DNA of 64,000 nt from Candidatus Omnitrophota bacterium (lineage in GTDB: Bacteria; Omnitrophota; Omnitrophia; Omnitrophales; JACQLI01): the NCBI GenBank assembly GCA_016179745.1, contig JACPCP010000022.1, positions 3,536 to 67,535 on the forward strand, in the 5' to 3' direction. The notes below the pieces were generated by a model. It did not search any database and was not told the origin of the DNA. It saw only the letters and a list, made by a program, of their open reading frames with translations. The translations under genes were made by a program, and so were the position numbers. Below, in pieces: positions 6,846 through 55,257 of the stretch (within the stretch, counting starts at the first letter, position 1; each line of letters opens with the position of its first letter).

Positions 6846-7097
6846 TCGAGGCCGTTAGTTGGACGGATTTTACTCCGGGCCCTTCCCAAAAGCAATCAGA
6901 AACTGGAGCAGAATCTTGTACCCGCTAAAATAAATTCCTCCACAAGGTCGCCGGCGGAGTCAGCTACCGGCCCCCGTTTTGAGCGGGAGCCGACAGGTTA
7001 GGGCTGTGGAGGGACCCCTTTCTTTCTCAAGAAACTCACCCAAGAATTGGTTCCTCCGCTTCCGGAATTCCGGAATTAGGCGATGTCACCGAAAGCG

Positions 7098-9553: not shown

Positions 9554-12046
9554 TCAAACCACCATGTTTAACAAGCGGTGCGGGACGTAAATGACTTTTT
9601 TCACTTCCCTGCCGTTGATCCATTCTCGGACTTTGGGATCCTGCAAAGCAAGGTTTTTAATTTCCTCTTCGGAGATTTGGCTCGGCACCTTCAGGCGGGA
9701 ACGGACCCGGCCGGAGACCTGCACGACAACTTCCTCCTCGTCCCGCACAAGCGCCCGGGAATCATAAGTCGGCCAGGGAGTGCGGAAAACCGTCTCGGAA
9801 TGGCCGAAGCGGAACCAGAGCTCCTCGGCAACGTGAGGAACGAAGGGGGCCAGGAGTTTGACGAGCGTTTCGAGACTCTCCCGCAGCAGCTTCTTTTCCT
9901 CAGCCGTGTGGGGCTCGAAACGATAAAGGCAGTTCAAAAATTCCATGCAGGCGCTGATGGCGGTGTTGAAATGGAAGTCGCCTTCAAGGTCGTCGGTCAC
10001 CTTCTTGACGGTCCGGTGAAGCTCATATCGAATCTCGCCGGCTCCCAGCGCCCTCCCTTCCCGTTCCCCCGTTTTCTCAGACTCTTCCCGGGCGGCCATC
10101 CGCCAAAGCCGGGCCAGGAATCGATACGCCCCTTCCACGCCCTGGTCCTGCCATTCGGCGTCCTTCTCCGGCGGGCCCATAAAGAGGGTGTAGAGCCGGA
10201 CCGTGTCGGCGCCGTATTTCCGGATCAATTCGTCCGGGCTCACCACGTTTCCCTTGGACTTCGACATCTTGGCCCCGTCTTTGATGATCATGCCCTGTGT
10301 GAATAGCCGGGCAAAAGGTTCTTTGAAGGAAATGAGCCCCAGATCGTAGAGAACCTTATTAATAAACCGTGCGTAAAGAAGATGCAGAATGGCGTGTTCG
10401 ACGCCGCCGATATATTGGTCCACGGGAAGCCAGCGGTTCACCGCCTGCGTATCAAAGGCCCGCTTTTCGTCCTTGGGGCTGATGTAACGCAGAAAATACC
10501 AGCTCGAATCCACAAAGGTGTCCATCGTGTCGGGCTCTCTTCGGGCCGGGACGTTACAACGGGGGCACTTCACTTTTTGAAATTCAGGGTGGTCCTGAAG
10601 CGGCGAGACGCCCGTGGGTTTGAATTTGACACTCTCAGGAAGGAGGACAGGCAAATCCTTTTCCGGAACGGGTACGGCCCCGCATTTTTGACAGTGGATC
10701 ATCGGAATGGGGGCGCCCCAGTAGCGCTGGCGGGAAATCAGCCAGTCCCGCAGGCGATACTGAATTTTCCGCCGGCCGATTTTGTTCCTCTCCATAAAAT
10801 CGGCGATCTTTTCTTTGGCCGCTTCGCTTGGAATTCCCGTGAAGGCGCCGGAATCCACCAAAATTCCGGGATCCTCATAGGCCTCCTTGAAAGCCTCCGT
10901 CTTTAAAGATTTCCCGGGTCGACCAATCACCACCCGAATCGGCAGTTTGTATTTCTTGGCGAATTCGAAATCCCGGTCATCGTGAGCCGGAACGGCCATC
11001 ACGATTCCTGTGCCGTATTCCATCAAAACGTAATTTGCAACCCAGAGGGGGATTTTTTCCTGAGTCATGGGATTGACGACAAAGCGGCCCGTAAAAATTC
11101 CTTCCTTCTCCGTCTCAAGCTGGGACCGCACCGTTAAATCTTGTGCTTTCATCCGATTGACGGCGGCTTCCACGTTCTTTCTCTCGGGAACATCACGGAC
11201 GAGCTCCGAAAGCCTCGGATGTTCCGGAGAAATGACAACATAGGTGGCGCCGAAAATCGTGTCCACCCGGGTGGTAAAACAGGAAAGGGGACTGTCCCCC
11301 TTTGAGGGGACTGTCCCCTTCAGGGGAACCACGGGAAAATCAATTTCAACGCCCGTGCTTTTCCCGATCCAATTCTCCTGCATGATCCGAACCCGCTCCG
11401 GCCAACCCTCCAAAAGCTTCAGGTCCTCCAGGAGCCGTTCGGCGTAAGTTGTAATTTTGAAAAACCATTGTTCCAGATTTTTGCTTTCCACTTTCGCTTC
11501 ACAGCGCTCGCACCTGCCGTCCACCACCTGTTCATTGGCGAGGGAAGTCTGACAGGAAGGGCACCAGTTCACGGCCGCCTTCTTTTTATAGGCCAGACCC
11601 TTCCCGTAAAGCTTGAGAAAAATCCACTGGGTCCATCGGTAATAATCAGGAAGGCAGGAAGTGACTTCCCGGGTCCAATCGTAGCCGCATCCCCATTCGC
11701 CGAGCTGGCGCTTCATATTTTGAACGTTCTGAAGGGTGGAAGTTTTCGGGTGGATATTGTTTTTGAGGGCGGCATTCTCGGCCGGCAGGCCGAAGGCGTC
11801 AAAGCCCATCGGACTCAGGACATTGAATCCTCTCATCATCTTGTAGCGGGCCACGGCATCGCCCAAAATGTAATTGTGACCGTGTCCCACGTGAAGTGAG
11901 GCGGAAGGATAGGGAAACATCACGAGGCAGTAATATTTTGGACGGGCGTCTTCGAGTTTGACCTCGAAGAGACGCTTCTCCGCCCACTGGCGCTGCCACC
12001 TGGGTTCAATTTCCCGGAAGGGATAAACAGGGCTGGATTTTTCCAT
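9554..12046 (-). CDS. leuS: Leucyl-tRNA synthetase
   Basis: 830 aa with a HIGH-type motif (HVGHGHNY), KMSKS (KMSKSKGN), the editing-domain TTRVDTIFG block and the conserved C-terminus VIYVPHRLLNMVV. Confidence 0.95.
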   Translation of the reverse strand: MEKSSPVYPFREIEPRWQRQWAEKRLFEVKLEDARPKYYCLVMFPYPSASLHVGHGHNYILGDAVARYKMMRGFNVLSPMGFDAFGLPAENAALKNNIHPKTSTLQNVQNMKRQLGEWGCGYDWTREVTSCLPDYYRWTQWIFLKLYGKGLAYKKKAAVNWCPSCQTSLANEQVVDGRCERCEAKVESKNLEQWFFKITTYAERLLEDLKLLEGWPERVRIMQENWIGKSTGVEIDFPVVPLKGTVPSKGDSPLSCFTTRVDTIFGATYVVISPEHPRLSELVRDVPERKNVEAAVNRMKAQDLTVRSQLETEKEGIFTGRFVVNPMTQEKIPLWVANYVLMEYGTGIVMAVPAHDDRDFEFAKKYKLPIRVVIGRPGKSLKTEAFKEAYEDPGILVDSGAFTGIPSEAAKEKIADFMERNKIGRRKIQYRLRDWLISRQRYWGAPIPMIHCQKCGAVPVPEKDLPVLLPESVKFKPTGVSPLQDHPEFQKVKCPRCNVPARREPDTMDTFVDSSWYFLRYISPKDEKRAFDTQAVNRWLPVDQYIGGVEHAILHLLYARFINKVLYDLGLISFKEPFARLFTQGMIIKDGAKMSKSKGNVVSPDELIRKYGADTVRLYTLFMGPPEKDAEWQDQGVEGAYRFLARLWRMAAREESEKTGEREGRALGAGEIRYELHRTVKKVTDDLEGDFHFNTAISACMEFLNCLYRFEPHTAEEKKLLRESLETLVKLLAPFVPHVAEELWFRFGHSETVFRTPWPTYDSRALVRDEEEVVVQVSGRVRSRLKVPSQISEEEIKNLALQDPKVREWINGREVKKVIYVPHRLLNMVV
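11287..11318. repeat. Two exact copies of 13-nt palindrome GGGGACTGTCCCC spaced 19 bp, inside leuS
   Basis: Read directly from the sequence: aggaaaGGGGACTGTCCCCctttgaGGGGACTGTCCCCttcaGGGGAAC. It encodes the LeuS segment PLKGTVPSKGDSPLS. Confidence 0.85.
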
Positions 12047-12162: not shown

Positions 12163-12250
12163 GGGCCGGCCCCTTGGTTACTTGGTGTGAGGGGCTGGCC
12201 TACATTTGGTTTTCGGGCCGGCCCCTTGATCGCTTGGTACGAGGGGCTGC
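12163..12250 (+). repeat. Two tandem similar stem-loops (52-bp period) upstream of tRNA-Ala
   Basis: GGGCCGGCCCC-ttggttacttggtgtga-GGGGCTGGCC at 12163-12200 and GGGCCGGCCCC-ttgatcgcttggtacga-GGGGCTGC at 12215-12250. Both begin with the same 7 nt as the tRNA-Ala acceptor (GGGCCGG). Confidence 0.7.
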
Positions 12251-35033: not shown

Positions 35034-35110
35034 CGGGGCGTAGCGCAGCCTGGTAGCGCACACGCTTGGGGTGCGTGCGGTCGGCCGTTCAAATCGGCCC
35101 GCCCCGACCA
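35034..35110 (+). tRNA. tRNA-Pro (anticodon GGG), CCA encoded
   Basis: CGGGGCG-TA-GCGCAGCCTGGTAGCGC-A-CACGC-TTGGGGT-GCGTG-CGGTC-GGCCG-TTCAAAT-CGGCC-CGCCCCG-A-CCA. Confidence 0.9.
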
Positions 35111-35166
35111 ATTTTGAGCGAAGCGAAAAACGGGTCGGGACGACCCGGAGCTTCCACTGCAACCAT

Positions 35167-35228
35167 AAAAATAGGGACAGCGACCTTTTACTGACTGAAA
35201 TCGTAAGAGGCTGCTGTCCCTATTTTTT
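35167..35228. terminator. Bidirectional intrinsic terminator between tRNA-Pro and hup
   Basis: AAAAATAGGGACAGC ... GCTGTCCCTATTTTTT. The long stem has an inner CCTTTTAC/GTAAGAGG extension and is flanked by an A-run and a T-run. Confidence 0.6.
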
Positions 35229-41155: not shown

Positions 41156-42843
41156 GGCTTTTCTTTTGAGCCGCCCTCTCCCGGGACCTTTAAACCGGAA
41201 TTCTTTTTCTCCGTCTCCAGGGCCGTGCGGGCCGTCAGACGGGGATTGGCTTTTCCATACTCGGCAAAAATGGCTTCAATCTCGTCGTAATCGAGTTCCG
41301 CCCGGACCAGGAGTTCATGGGCAAACCGTTCAAACAGTTCATGTTCCTTTTTCAGTAAACCCTCGACCTCTGTCACGCAGGCTTTGAGGAGGGCGTCCGT
41401 ATCCTGATTGAGCCGGGTCTTGGTTTCTTCCGATATCTCGGACTCCGGGATCGTCGTATAATCCCCCACCCATCCCGAAGGCCCCATCCCGAAACGCCAG
41501 ACCATTTGATGCGCAATCCCCATGGCCTGCCGGAAATCCTGCGAGACGCCGCTCGTCGTTGTTCCAAACTTGATTTTTTCAGCCACGTAACTGGCGATAC
41601 ACACCTTGATGTCCGCCATCAAAGTTTCACGGTCTGCGCTGTGCCACTCTTCCCTCGGGGTGGGGTGGACAACCCCCAGCGTCCCCTTCCGGGGGACGAT
41701 CGAGGCCTTAAAGACATCATCTCTCGGGTGCAAAAGATAGGTGGCGATCAGATGGCCTGTTTCGTGGTAGGCAGTCATCTCCCGTTCACGATCGTTCATC
41801 TTGAAAGATTGCTTCATCCCCAGCTCGATCCTTTCAATGGCCTCGGAAATTTCCTTCAACGTGATGAGTTCCTTGCCGTTCCGGACGGCAATCAAGGCGG
41901 CCTCTTTGACAATATTTTCAATTTCGGCCGGAGTTTTGCCCACTGCCTTTCGGGCCAGACGGGCCGTATCCACGGAGGCCTCATGTTTGACCTTGTTCAA
42001 ATAATACTTGAAGAGGGCCTCACGCCCTTCCAGGCCGGGTTTGGTAATGTAAACCTTCCGGTCAAACCGGCCGGGACGAAGGAGGGCCGGGTCCAAAATA
42101 TCTTCGGAAGCGTTGGTGGCGCCGATCACAATGACATTTTCAGCCTTCCCGGTGAGCCCGTCCATTTCGACCAAAAGCTGGTTCTGGGTATTGTTGGTCT
42201 CCGCCCCGCCGAATTGATTGAAGACACGGCGGTGGCCCAGGGCATCCAACTCGTCGATAAACACCACGCACCCGCCGAAACCATAGGCCAGACTCCGGGC
42301 CTTTTTGAAAAGAGACCGGACACGGCTCGAGCCGACCCCTACAAATACTTCATTAAATTCGCTGGCCGCCATCGAAAGAAACGGCAGTCCCGCCTCCGCC
42401 GCAATGGCCTTCGCCAAATAGGTCTTCCCGCAGCCCGGGGGGCCGACCATCAAAATGCCCCGCAGAATCTTTCCCCCGATTCTCTTGAGGCGGGCATGAT
42501 CCTTGATGAGCTGGACAACCTCCCAGCATTCTTCCTTGGCCTCATCAATCCCGATGACATCGCTGAAACGGACACTGACATCCCGGGCCTTGATATTCTT
42601 CTTGTCAATTTTGGTGAAGCCGCCTCTCAGAACCAGCGCATACATATAGACAAACACAAGGCTGTTCACGATCACCAAAAGGATGGAGATGGGCATTTGG
42701 GCGAGCGTAATATTCCGGTAATAGCTTTCAAGAGACATCATTCCATAAATGGAGAGGATGACGAGAAGAATGATTCCCAGGATGACAAACAGCTTGGTCC
42801 GGTGGTTCAAGAAGTGCATTTTAAGCCGTCTGTAGTGATTCAT
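41152..42843 (-). CDS. FtsH-family AAA+ zinc metalloprotease lacking the periplasmic domain
   Basis: 563 aa. Walker A GPPGCGKT, Walker B VVFIDELDA, SRH ATNASEDILDPALLRPGRFDR, HEXXH (HETGH). Two N-terminal TM helices are separated by only ~14 residues. Confidence 0.8.
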   Translation of the reverse strand: MNHYRRLKMHFLNHRTKLFVILGIILLVILSIYGMMSLESYYRNITLAQMPISILLVIVNSLVFVYMYALVLRGGFTKIDKKNIKARDVSVRFSDVIGIDEAKEECWEVVQLIKDHARLKRIGGKILRGILMVGPPGCGKTYLAKAIAAEAGLPFLSMAASEFNEVFVGVGSSRVRSLFKKARSLAYGFGGCVVFIDELDALGHRRVFNQFGGAETNNTQNQLLVEMDGLTGKAENVIVIGATNASEDILDPALLRPGRFDRKVYITKPGLEGREALFKYYLNKVKHEASVDTARLARKAVGKTPAEIENIVKEAALIAVRNGKELITLKEISEAIERIELGMKQSFKMNDREREMTAYHETGHLIATYLLHPRDDVFKASIVPRKGTLGVVHPTPREEWHSADRETLMADIKVCIASYVAEKIKFGTTTSGVSQDFRQAMGIAHQMVWRFGMGPSGWVGDYTTIPESEISEETKTRLNQDTDALLKACVTEVEGLLKKEHELFERFAHELLVRAELDYDEIEAIFAEYGKANPRLTARTALETEKKNSGLKVPGEGGSKEKP

Positions 42844-53492: not shown

Positions 53493-54391
53493 CGGGCCGG
53501 GGGCCTTTTTTTATTTCGAAGCACTCCCAGGTCCGCCAAAACCTTTCTCAGTTTCTCCCGGTTTTCGGCGCCCATCTCACAGAGCGGCAGACGGAGCTCT
53601 GGATGAATCAGCCCCATCATCCCCAGCGCTGTCTTCACAGGAATGGGGTTTGTCTCCACAAAAAGAATTTTTGACAGCGGGTAATGCTTCCGGTGAAGAT
53701 CCCGGCCCTGTTCAAGATCGCCATTCAGCATGGCATGCACCATTTCCCGGACGAGCGACGGGACGACATTGGCCGTCACGGAAATCACGCCCTTGGCGCC
53801 GATCGCCATCATCGGCATCGTGAGCGAATCTTCCCCAGAGAGGACCGTAAGGTCGCAAAGTTCGAGGATTTGGTCGACTTGATCGAGGCTCCCGCTTGCC
53901 TCTTTGATGGCGACGATGGTTTCAATTTTGGAAAGCCGGGCCACGGTTTGAGGCGCAATCGAGACCCCGGTCCGCCCCGGCACGTTGTAAAGAATCATCG
54001 GAATCTCCACCTTGGAGGCGAGGGTGGAGTAATGCCGATAGAGACCCTCCTGGGTGGGACGATTATAGTAAGGGGTAACAACCAAAACGCCGTCGGCCTT
54101 GATTTGTTTCGCATGGCGGATGAGACCGAGGGCCTCTGCCGTGTTATTGGAACCGGTGCCGCAGATCACGGGAACTCTTCGGTCAACAAACTCCACCACA
54201 AACGACATCACCCGGCGATGCTCTTCGTGGGAGAGCGTCGCCGATTCCCCCGTCGTCCCCGTGGGAATAATGGCGTCCGTCCGGGCCTCGAGGTGAAATT
54301 GAAGAAGGCCTTTGAGGGCCTTCCAGTCCACCTTGCCGTTCCGGAAAGGGGTCACCAAAGCCACCATGGAGCCCTGAAATAATGTTTTCAT
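53489..54391 (-). CDS. dapA: 4-hydroxy-tetrahydrodipicolinate synthase
   Basis: About 300 aa from MKTLFQGSMVALVTPF. Contains GTTGESATLSHEEH, YNRPTQEG and AIKEASG. ATGA overlaps on both sides. Confidence 0.9.
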   Translation of the reverse strand: MKTLFQGSMVALVTPFRNGKVDWKALKGLLQFHLEARTDAIIPTGTTGESATLSHEEHRRVMSFVVEFVDRRVPVICGTGSNNTAEALGLIRHAKQIKADGVLVVTPYYNRPTQEGLYRHYSTLASKVEIPMILYNVPGRTGVSIAPQTVARLSKIETIVAIKEASGSLDQVDQILELCDLTVLSGEDSLTMPMMAIGAKGVISVTANVVPSLVREMVHAMLNGDLEQGRDLHRKHYPLSKILFVETNPIPVKTALGMMGLIHPELRLPLCEMGAENREKLRKVLADLGVLRNKKRPPAR

Positions 54392-55257
54392 CGGTTTCTT
54401 CCCGCCCACCTTCCTTCGAAGATGAATGTCGCCTCCCCTTCCAGAAAAATTTCCCGGAGGAGGTCTCCCTTTTTGGCAAAATCGATCGTGAGAATCTCCC
54501 CGCCCGAGGTCTTCACCTCGACCGGCGGGTTGACGTATTCCAAATGCGCACTGACCACGGCAGAGGCGGCTGATCCCGTGCCGCAGGCCAGCGTTTCCTT
54601 CTCCACTCCCCGCTCGTAGGTCCGCACCGAAAGGGACCGGGGCCCCGTCACTTCGACAAAATTGACATTCGTGCCGGCCGGCCGGAACCGGGAATGAAAA
54701 CGCAGTTCTTTTCCCAGATCAAAAACCGGGATCTTTCCGAGCCCCTCCACGAAGACCACCACGTGAGGCACGCCCGTATTGACGAAATAATAATGGATTT
54801 GGCGGTCAAAAACCTTAATCTTTTCCGGTCCTGTCAGACGATTTGGATTCGCCAACCGAACCCGCACCCGCTTCCCCTTGACCTCGGCTTGAATCATTCC
54901 GGAGAGGGACTCAAATTGTTGCCGGTTGGGAAGCCCCAATTTTTCCTTCGCAAACAAGGCCACGCAGCGAAATCCGTTGCCGCAGGCTTCCGCTTCCGAG
55001 CCGTCCGAATTAAAAATCCGGACCCGGAAATCGGCCTTCTTCGAAGAAAAAGGGGACTGTCCCCTTTTTGGGGGGCCGTCCCCTTTTTCCTCCGCTAAGG
55101 GTTCGAGCAAGAGGACCCCGTCAGCCCCCACGCCCCGGTGCCGGTCGCAAACGGCCCGGGTCAGGGCAGGCAAATTTGAAACTTTCCGGGCACGGTTGTC
55201 GATCACCACGAAATCGTTTCCCGATGCCGCCATTTTGTAAAAGGAAATTTCTTTCAT
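54388..55257 (-). CDS. dapF: Diaminopimelate epimerase
   Basis: 289 aa. Contains FYKMAASGNDFVVIDN, IFNSDGSEAEACGNG, NTGVPHVV and LACGTGSAAS (second catalytic Cys). Confidence 0.85.
   Translation of the reverse strand: MKEISFYKMAASGNDFVVIDNRARKVSNLPALTRAVCDRHRGVGADGVLLLEPLAEEKGDGPPKRGQSPFSSKKADFRVRIFNSDGSEAEACGNGFRCVALFAKEKLGLPNRQQFESLSGMIQAEVKGKRVRVRLANPNRLTGPEKIKVFDRQIHYYFVNTGVPHVVVFVEGLGKIPVFDLGKELRFHSRFRPAGTNVNFVEVTGPRSLSVRTYERGVEKETLACGTGSAASAVVSAHLEYVNPPVEVKTSGGEILTIDFAKKGDLLREIFLEGEATFIFEGRWAGRNR
55052..55083. repeat. Palindrome GGGGACTGTCCCC plus degenerate second copy GGGGGGCCGTCCCC, each flanked by A5/T5 runs, inside dapF
   Basis: Read directly: gaagaaaaaGGGGACTGTCCCCtttttGGGGGGCCGTCCCCtttttcc. 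It encodes the DapF segment EEKGDGPPKRGQSPFSSKK. Confidence 0.85.

Follow-up and report, generated by a model that had tools for sequence, protein, structure and literature searches.

A short palindromic repeat, probably of the REP/REPIN type, in frame within leuS and dapF of an uncultivated Omnitrophota bacterium

According to the main text of Di Nocera, De Gregorio and Rocco (2013, BMC Genomics 14:522, PMC3733652), repetitive extragenic palindromes (REPs) are sorted into GTAG- and CGTC-tagged superfamilies, and some copies are intragenic. As described there, intragenic REPs are short (20-40 bp), occur mostly as dimers and lie in frame in housekeeping genes, tRNA synthetases included, where they encode 20-30 amino acids. 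The same text names two species as richest in them: Opitutus terrae (PVC group), whose REP dimers have partners only 1-2 bp apart, and Rickettsia conorii, whose Rickettsia palindromic elements (RPEs) RPE-4 and RPE-6 belong here; Thauera is also named. The subject of the present analysis is a short palindromic repeat found in two genes, leuS and dapF, of Candidatus Omnitrophota bacterium. The whole stretch that was analysed, 64,000 nucleotides of contig JACPCP010000022.1 (assembly GCA_016179745.1, positions 3,536 to 67,535), is referred to as the window. A preliminary description of this DNA is confirmed in what it observed and holds for the most part in its structural interpretation, but it overrated the novelty: it knew of no comparable short family inserted in frame, and intragenic REP dimers and RPE-4/RPE-6 had already been described in the text cited above.

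With a probability of roughly 70%, the two copies in the window belong to a dispersed, non-coding, hairpin-forming repeat of the REP/REPIN type, whose 13-nt core is arranged as a tight doublet and is accompanied in the Omnitrophota by A-rich and T-rich flanks. Alignment of orthologous genes shows copies gained and lost at the same sites between close relatives, and structural models place both window copies in low-confidence loops between predicted beta strands of LeuS and DapF. The peptide that each copy encodes is probably incidental.

The repeat unit and its doublets

The window contains just three exact copies of GGGGACTGTCCCC, two of them in leuS and one in dapF, and exact matches of GGGGACNGTCCCC fall at 11287-11299 and 11306-11318, with the 19-bp period already seen in the preliminary description, and at 55052-55064. 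The leuS copy of the element (11284-11320) consists of two 13-nt palindromic units with A/T-rich flanks (AAAGGGGACTGTCCCCCTTTGAGGGGACTGTCCCCTT) in one hairpin; the plus strand at 11281-11325 reads aggaaaGGGGACTGTCCCCctttgaGGGGACTGTCCCCttcaggggaac. The dapF copy is a 54-nt in-frame insert of 18 codons at 55045-55098 (LAEEKGDGPPKRGQSPFS), with an imperfect long hairpin whose arms read GA(A/G)GAAAAAGGGGAC..., and the plus strand at 55045-55095 is agaaaaaGGGGACTGTCCCCtttttgGGGGGCCGTCCCCtttttcc. A two-unit layout had been claimed for dapF as well. One unit is indeed exact, and the two-unit blocks at 11284-11320 and 55049-55085 are 86% identical over 37 nt; the second unit, however, is a degenerate fourth member, GGGGGCCGTCCCC at 55071-55083, with two mismatches in its core. 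What had been taken in leuS for the partial start of a third unit, GGGGAAC at 11323-11329, is a pair of native Val-Pro codons (GTT CCC), and the same codons stand in the palindrome-free gene of a relative (L122). An nhmmer profile built from Omnitrophota copies matches only the leuS and dapF loci in the window (E-values 4e-14 and 4e-13; the next is about 1), and a window-wide hairpin scan gives, besides these two elements, only chance 7-bp stems.

Both host ORFs (open reading frames) are intact and encode the peptides originally proposed, PLKGTVPSKGDSPLS in LeuS and EEKGDGPPKRGQSPFS in DapF. The leuS sense strand, which is the minus strand, reads CCC CTG AAG GGG ACA GTC CCC TCA AAG GGG GAC AGT CCC CTT. 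Since the 19-bp period shifts the frame, one unit yields G-T-V-P and the other G-D-S-P: unit 1 (11287-11299) is read as K-G-D-S-P-L, and unit 2 (11306-11318), in another frame, as K-G-T-V-P. The dapF units are read as G-D-G-P-P and R-G-Q-S-P. The 13-mer can thus appear as KGTVP, KGDSPL or RGQSPF depending on the frame, and its degenerate copy as KGDGPP. Because the units are translated in different frames, the repeat is a feature of the DNA and not a peptide motif.

A chance product of codon usage, in which Lys-Gly-x-x-Pro loops happen to spell a palindrome and vary between lineages as protein loops ordinarily do, is very improbable. K-G-D and V-P codons are common in loops, the LeuS loops of relatives are of similar length, and the ftsH-like gene holds a lone GTCCCC..GGGGGAC pair, GTCCCCTTCCGGGGGAC at 41680-41697; with its half sites in the opposite order and as a single occurrence, that pair is most likely due to chance, as had been supposed. 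Dinucleotide-preserving shuffles nevertheless give an expectation of 0.04 exact 13-mers against three observed, and 0 of 100 shuffles reach three. The codon-usage null that the preliminary description had proposed, run by permuting synonymous codons inside 52 ORFs (90% of the window), has a mean of 0.06 and a maximum of one in 300 shuffles. The 37-nt blocks resemble one another across unrelated genes, identical 13-mers are read in different frames, and the same doublet stands at no fewer than 120 loci elsewhere. Coincidence of codons is ruled out by the frame differences together with both nulls.

With its flanks, the 13-nt core makes a unit of about 19 nt, and a doublet makes a hairpin of 16-19 bp, which corresponds to a REP stem-loop in the broad sense. 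Each doublet is predicted to fold into a single long hairpin through pairing of unit 1 with unit 2, and this predicted pairing matches the description of a REPIN as two inverted REPs in one hairpin. Folding energies are -35 to -38 kcal/mol for the doublets as RNA (z-scores -3.1 to -5.1) and -17.6 and -17.9 kcal/mol as DNA. Since each unit is itself palindromic, orientation is set by the central base only; the leuS copy is T/T, with one central mismatch, and the doublet of a relative (L121) is A/T. The core, GGGGAC[A/T]GTCCCC, contains a stop codon in none of the six reading frames. Neither the leuS nor the dapF element matches any family in Rfam.

History of the leuS and dapF sites

The first host gene, leuS (9554-12046, minus strand), encodes an 830-aa leucyl-tRNA synthetase. 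As the preliminary description stated, the LeuS loop is longer than in well-known enzymes: relative to the leucyl-tRNA synthetases (LeuRS) of T. thermophilus (1H3N) and E. coli it has eight extra residues. They follow GVEIDFPV and precede the Thr-rich TTRVDT editing motif, where the CP1 editing domain is entered. Within the clade, codons P241-S252 (11291-11326, minus strand) number 12 against four in the shortest allele (L144/P0019), which again leaves eight extra residues. Mapping onto a structure, also proposed at the outset, puts the insert in a lower-confidence loop of the AlphaFold model: residues 241-250 lie between two strands, with a predicted local distance difference test (pLDDT) score of 64 against 91 and 87 in the neighbouring blocks.

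The chance that the palindromes were made by an assembler or by faulty binning is practically negligible. Close relatives are all metagenome assemblies, which leaves some room for such an error, but an independent Logan assembly (P0001) holds an identical 830-aa LeuS with the insert, so the leuS insert is not an assembly artefact of this window. The frame is moreover preserved in two essential genes, and doublets of the same kind are present in the long-read complete chromosomes OY969568.1 and OY969804.1 and in a few isolate genomes.

Alignment of LeuS orthologues had been proposed to confirm a lineage-specific insertion, and it shows a leuS history less simple than the arrival of a copy in a short loop. 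Distant orthologues that lack the repeat and still carry the same extra residues had been named as evidence against an insertion, and for leuS they are found in part, in that most LeuS relatives at 75-80% identity have a 16-aa loop free of the palindrome, compared with 18 aa in the window (alignment A1 and the DNA of L122, AAAGGAGACCGATCTTTGGAGCCCCCCCTT). A loop of the L122 type may be a decayed copy of the element. The 8-aa loop belongs to some members of the clade (P0019, P0021) and to more distant orthologues; in L144 it reads GAC GGG AGC GAA. An intact doublet occupies the same leuS site in the window, in P0016, where it is known from the peptide only, and in P0020/L121, where it is known from the DNA (AAGGGGACAGTCCCGTTAAAAGGGGACTGTCCCCTT in L121). 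The closest LeuS relative, P0002, carries another palindrome of about 66 nt in the same place (GTCATCCTGAG...CTCAGGATGAC).

Turning to dapF (54388-55257, minus strand), which encodes a 289-aa diaminopimelate epimerase, the alignment gives a clean case of presence and absence, unlike leuS. The exact unit 1 (55052-55064) and the degenerate unit 2 lie within an excess of 15-18 residues relative to solved DapF structures and the closest relative (a gap-free 15 relative to the solved DapFs). That closest relative, P0121/L124, is 88% identical in protein and 85-95% in nucleotide sequence and lacks exactly 54 nt. Its empty allele reads GAA CCT followed directly by TCC AAA AAG, and the filled allele reads GAA CCC TTAGCGGAGGAAAAAGGGGACGGCCCCCCAAAAAGGGGACAGTCCCCTTTTTCT TCG AAG AAG. 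In the predicted DapF model, residues 53-76 form a coil with pLDDT 52-69, flanked by strands 47-52 and 77-83 in adjoining blocks that score 88-96.

At the nucleotide level the dapF of the window is a mosaic. It tracks L124 at 85-95% except over about 60 nt that take in the insert's 3' end and the flank downstream of it (window 55000-55045; alignment columns 211-270), where its identity is 92% to L125 and 72% to L124; outside this tract L125 is only about 68% identical. An L125-like segment inside an otherwise L124-like gene indicates a recombination tract. Either the insert came with this tract or L124 lost its insert through a comparable one, and the pattern indicates that homologous recombination moves the element between dapF alleles. 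At this dapF site, L125 and L126 each have a related single long hairpin (AAAGGGGACAGGTCC...GGACCTGTCCCCTTT). A further copy, GGGGACAGTCCCCTTAAAGGGGACAGG, was observed at the 3' end of argG in L126 (7213-7240, GCA_964373135.1), where it falls at the C-terminal end of argininosuccinate synthase; this protein has 403 aa in L126 and 394 aa in L125.

The dapF tract, with an ancestry unlike that of the rest of the gene, could also be taken to mean that the core is a recognition signal spread by biased recombination and not by transposition, whether akin to a DNA uptake sequence (DUS) or to a recombination-hot-spot motif, with inverted pairs that, as in Neisseria or Haemophilus, would accumulate, double as terminators and enter coding regions. 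Pairs do stand both directly after stop codons and within genes, no transposase is linked to the doublets in the window or in the loci examined, and native codons beside both sites resemble the element. The density of the core speaks against it: the three exact cores amount to about one per 20 kb, whereas DUS and the uptake signal sequence (USS) reach roughly one per kb. Uptake signals are also lineage-specific, the core is common to many phyla, and no uptake receptor is linked to the motif. A signal of this kind is therefore quite unlikely. The native codons themselves (11291-11305 and 55030-55044) resemble one arm of the element, reading GAC GGG AGC GAA CCC TTG in the short leuS allele of L144 and AAA AAG GGC GAC in the empty dapF allele of L124; they could be a microhomology-guided target or a coincidence.

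The relatives vary at three positions in LeuS and one in DapF, and at least five other palindromic families are present there. In LeuS of related Omnitrophota these hot spots correspond to columns of about 255-300, 420-490 and 760-790 of alignment A1 (loci L121 and L123), and the families comprise the palindrome of the closest relative given above, an ATAG/CTAC-tagged REP dimer, CCCTCTCCCCAACGGGGAGAGGG and a sibling doublet, AAAAGGGGTCAGGCCCCTTTTAGGGGTCTGACCCCTTTT, with the core GGGGTC[A/T]GACCCC. The hot-spot peptides GAIHELPL and GQAQGPAPT, which may also stem from palindromes, are known at the protein level only. Since other palindromic families use the same loops of LeuS and DapF, these loops are best seen as tolerant hot spots. 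Most simply, the element and its like would insert at many places and persist only where a loop tolerates them, although a preference for certain targets may also play a part.

Distribution and mode of spread

A doublet scan of one genome per species, with spacers of 4-8 nt, listed at least 120 loci from at least 70 genomes, and the proportions in this section refer to the loci listed. The phyla represented include Omnitrophota, Planctomycetota (among them Kuenenia), Actinomycetota, WOR-3, Patescibacteria, Desulfobacterota, Pseudomonadota, Kiritimatiellia and others. Among the matches listed, other genomes have three to seven loci each, and the window has two in 64 kb. Flanks and spacers are lineage-specific, and the Omnitrophota copies share A-run and T-run flanks like those of the window. 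About 90% of units have A or T as their central base; 88 doublets are homodimers (AA/TT centres) and 43 are heterodimers (AT/TA). Arrays of 3-10 units occur in L074, L019 and L024, and GTAG/CTAC stands beside a few copies in other phyla (L005, L016, L074). The array of L074 (1529-1684), from an Allosphingosinicella metagenome-assembled genome (MAG), has about nine core units in tandem with an 18-bp period (GGGGACAGTCCCCGGTAG) and GTAG beside each core.

Many doublets are found at the ends of genes. The start of the doublet lies within 30 nt after a stop codon (ORFs of at least 150 aa) in 48% of cases against 8% of random positions, the median distance from stop codon to doublet is 11 nt, and 21 doublets stand between convergent ORFs. 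The share of doublets in long ORFs is unreliable in high-GC genomes, where it reaches 90% for random positions, and stop-codon distance and Pfam-verified cases were used in its place. In-frame doublets were found in Pfam-verified genes for a MiaB-like protein, QueG, an amidase, a GT4 glycosyltransferase, a UvrD-like helicase, a CobQ fusion and a rhamnosidase. One MiaB/RimO-like radical-SAM gene of 447 aa from the Omnitrophota (L006 4309-4863, JAUSED010000009.1) contains three separate in-frame doublets, and two of the three fall within Pfam domain matches.

The position of these doublets bears on whether the copies inside genes might be functional RNA or transcription signals kept by selection, for example to terminate or attenuate in a translation-dependent manner, to act on mRNA stability or to make ribosomes pause at a domain boundary. 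The leuS copy, in the middle of its ORF, looks like a terminator on the sense strand in a consensus scan (AAAGGGGGACAGTCCCCTTT then CCTGTTTTAC), the A-run and T-run flanks of Omnitrophota copies resemble those of bidirectional terminators, about half of the doublets follow stop codons at around 11 nt, and the RNA hairpins are very stable. In addition, the cores remain exact in genes that have diverged 12-25% from their relatives, which would fit copies that were inserted recently, copies that undergo gene conversion with one another or a hairpin under selection. A strong terminator within an essential gene would be costly, however, and the unrelated palindromes in the same loops of other lineages point to tolerance and not to a specific signal. 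Further counterevidence comes from the lack of any orientation bias of the doublets relative to the upstream ORF and of any Rfam match. Since DapF of the closest relative functions with no insert, the intragenic copies are unlikely to have a role as terminator or RNA; for doublets at gene ends, such a role is plausible.

If the REP/REPIN reading is correct, the element would spread non-autonomously as a single-stranded hairpin handled in trans by an HUH/Y1 enzyme (RAYT- or IS200/IS605-like, RAYT being a REP-associated tyrosine transposase) encoded elsewhere in the genome, by analogy with REPINs. Homologous recombination may also pass it between alleles. Insertion would be blind to reading frame. 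Since the core is free of stop codons in all six frames and its peptides are rich in Gly, Pro, Ser and Lys, copies whose length is a multiple of three and which land in a tolerant loop could survive selection, and survival in such loops only would give the appearance of insertion hot spots.

Several observations weigh against this reading. No Y1/RAYT transposase was found in the window among ORFs of at least 90 aa by phmmer and jackhmmer with IS200 and IS608 TnpA seeds, and the same ORF class in 126 loci held a single Y1 transposase, in L041, flanked by a different palindrome; the search covered the 64-kb window and the 126 loci, and a RAYT may lie elsewhere in the genome. Clustering of the ORFs that neighbour doublets gave no recurrent gene beyond the ubiquitous superfamilies of response regulator/GGDEF, ABC ATPase and SDR. 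Neither a GTAG nor a CGTC tag was found at the unit ends in the window, where the flanks are GAAA/CTTT, TTGA/TTCA and AAAA/TTTT. Comparison with the empty allele shows no convincing target-site duplication at the dapF junctions. Since most relatives have a palindrome-free leuS loop of nearly equal length, an old insertion, intact or refreshed by gene conversion, is as possible there as a recent transposition. The window has the low density of two loci per 64 kb, both intragenic, and classical REPs lie mostly outside genes and frequently run to hundreds of copies. Finally, REPINs are extragenic, vertically inherited and lineage-specific in sequence, and the same core across phyla is not predicted by vertically inherited REPIN-RAYT systems.

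It is conceivable, though doubtful, that all GGGGAC[A/T]GTCCCC doublets form one pan-bacterial mini-palindrome family, served by one conserved enzyme or DNA/RNA-binding protein, spread horizontally across phyla, terminator-like at gene ends and routinely colonising coding loops. If true, the family would be a cosmopolitan mobile hairpin distinct from lineage-bound REPIN-RAYT systems. A composition-matched and equally stop-free control doublet, GGGGCANTGCCCC, occurs at 17 loci, with all four central bases, in a much larger metagenome collection; as target and control were counted in different collections, the comparison is only indicative. The wide spread of one 13-nt core relative to the matched control suggests an unrecognised and widely shared recognition system. 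Viral contigs scanned for doublets contained none, so carriage by phages is not supported, and the viral scans are unusable as a control.

In uncultivated Omnitrophota, several palindromic families thus repeatedly decorate essential enzymes at the same few tolerant loops, and the resulting lineage-specific indels can lead protein alignments, gene calling and the annotation of MAGs astray. These hot spots are also naturally validated insertion-tolerant sites in LeuRS and DapF.

Other structured features were noted in the window. Between leuS and tRNA-Ala lie two 35-nt direct repeats (12163-12197 and 12215-12249), 86% identical and 52 bp apart, each a GC-rich hairpin (GGCCGGCCCCT...AGGGGCTGGCC) with no match in Rfam. 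Just downstream of tRNA-Pro (35034-35110), a long hairpin at 35166-35228 (AAAAATAGGGACAGCGACC...GGCTGCTGTCCCTATTTTT) has arms that begin GGGACAG/CTGTCCC, like the element, and is flanked by an A-run and a T-run; in appearance a bidirectional terminator, it may be related to the family. A c-di-AMP riboswitch is present at 6933-7092 on the minus strand (RF00379, 43.8 bits, above the gathering score).

Comparison with described repeats and signals

Of the systems that share some property with the element, intrinsic bidirectional terminators are similar in having a GC-rich hairpin between an A-run and a T-run about 11 nt past stop codons in many genomes. Terminators, however, do not form a repeated sequence family and are not normally found inside essential ORFs. 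The DUS of Neisseria and the USS of Pasteurellaceae likewise have a short fixed core, often in inverted pairs that act as terminators, also occur in genes and are spread by recombination; they differ in being lineage-specific and about 20-fold denser, a density the element does not approach. [quoted passage not shown] At 70-400 bp, with terminal inverted repeats and target-site duplications, they stand apart from an element of 37-54 nt with no visible duplication, which does not qualify as a MITE.

Rickettsia palindromic elements (Ogata et al. 2000-2002) resemble the element in their in-frame location in housekeeping genes, their tolerance in surface regions and a peptide that depends on the frame. 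RPE-1, in contrast, is about 100-150 bp long and restricted to Rickettsia, whereas the element measures 37-54 nt and is found in Omnitrophota. The short RPE-4 and RPE-6 are given as CGTC-tagged REPs in the main text of PMC3733652, and the window copies are without a tag. The likeness to RPEs is one of behaviour only; no similarity of sequence is apparent, although the element and RPE sequences were not directly compared.

REPIN-RAYT systems (Bertels and Rainey 2011; Nunvar et al. 2010) share with the element two palindromic units in one long hairpin, a non-coding nature and dispersal. They differ in that no RAYT was found here in the window or the loci examined, and in that both homodimers and heterodimers are present. 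The intragenic REPs of PMC3733652, as its main text describes them, share still other properties: the units are short palindromes, most of them form dimers with the capacity for a larger hairpin, and they lie mainly just 3' of ORFs with a subset in frame. Unlike the GTAG and CGTC superfamilies, the window copies are tagless, their unit is only 13-19 nt, and the same core is found in many phyla. With neither a tag nor a tie to a RAYT, the element is not filed in either superfamily. The core GGGGACWGTCCCC is absent from the main text of that article, figures and supplements aside; no bacterial paper came up in a literature search by sequence (13-mer and 11-mers) and by encoded peptide, and a keyword search of later literature on intragenic REPs in metagenomes found nothing specific. 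The family thus appears to be undescribed. It is the repeat family that is new, while its kind, a REP/REPIN-like repeat with in-frame intragenic copies, is already known.

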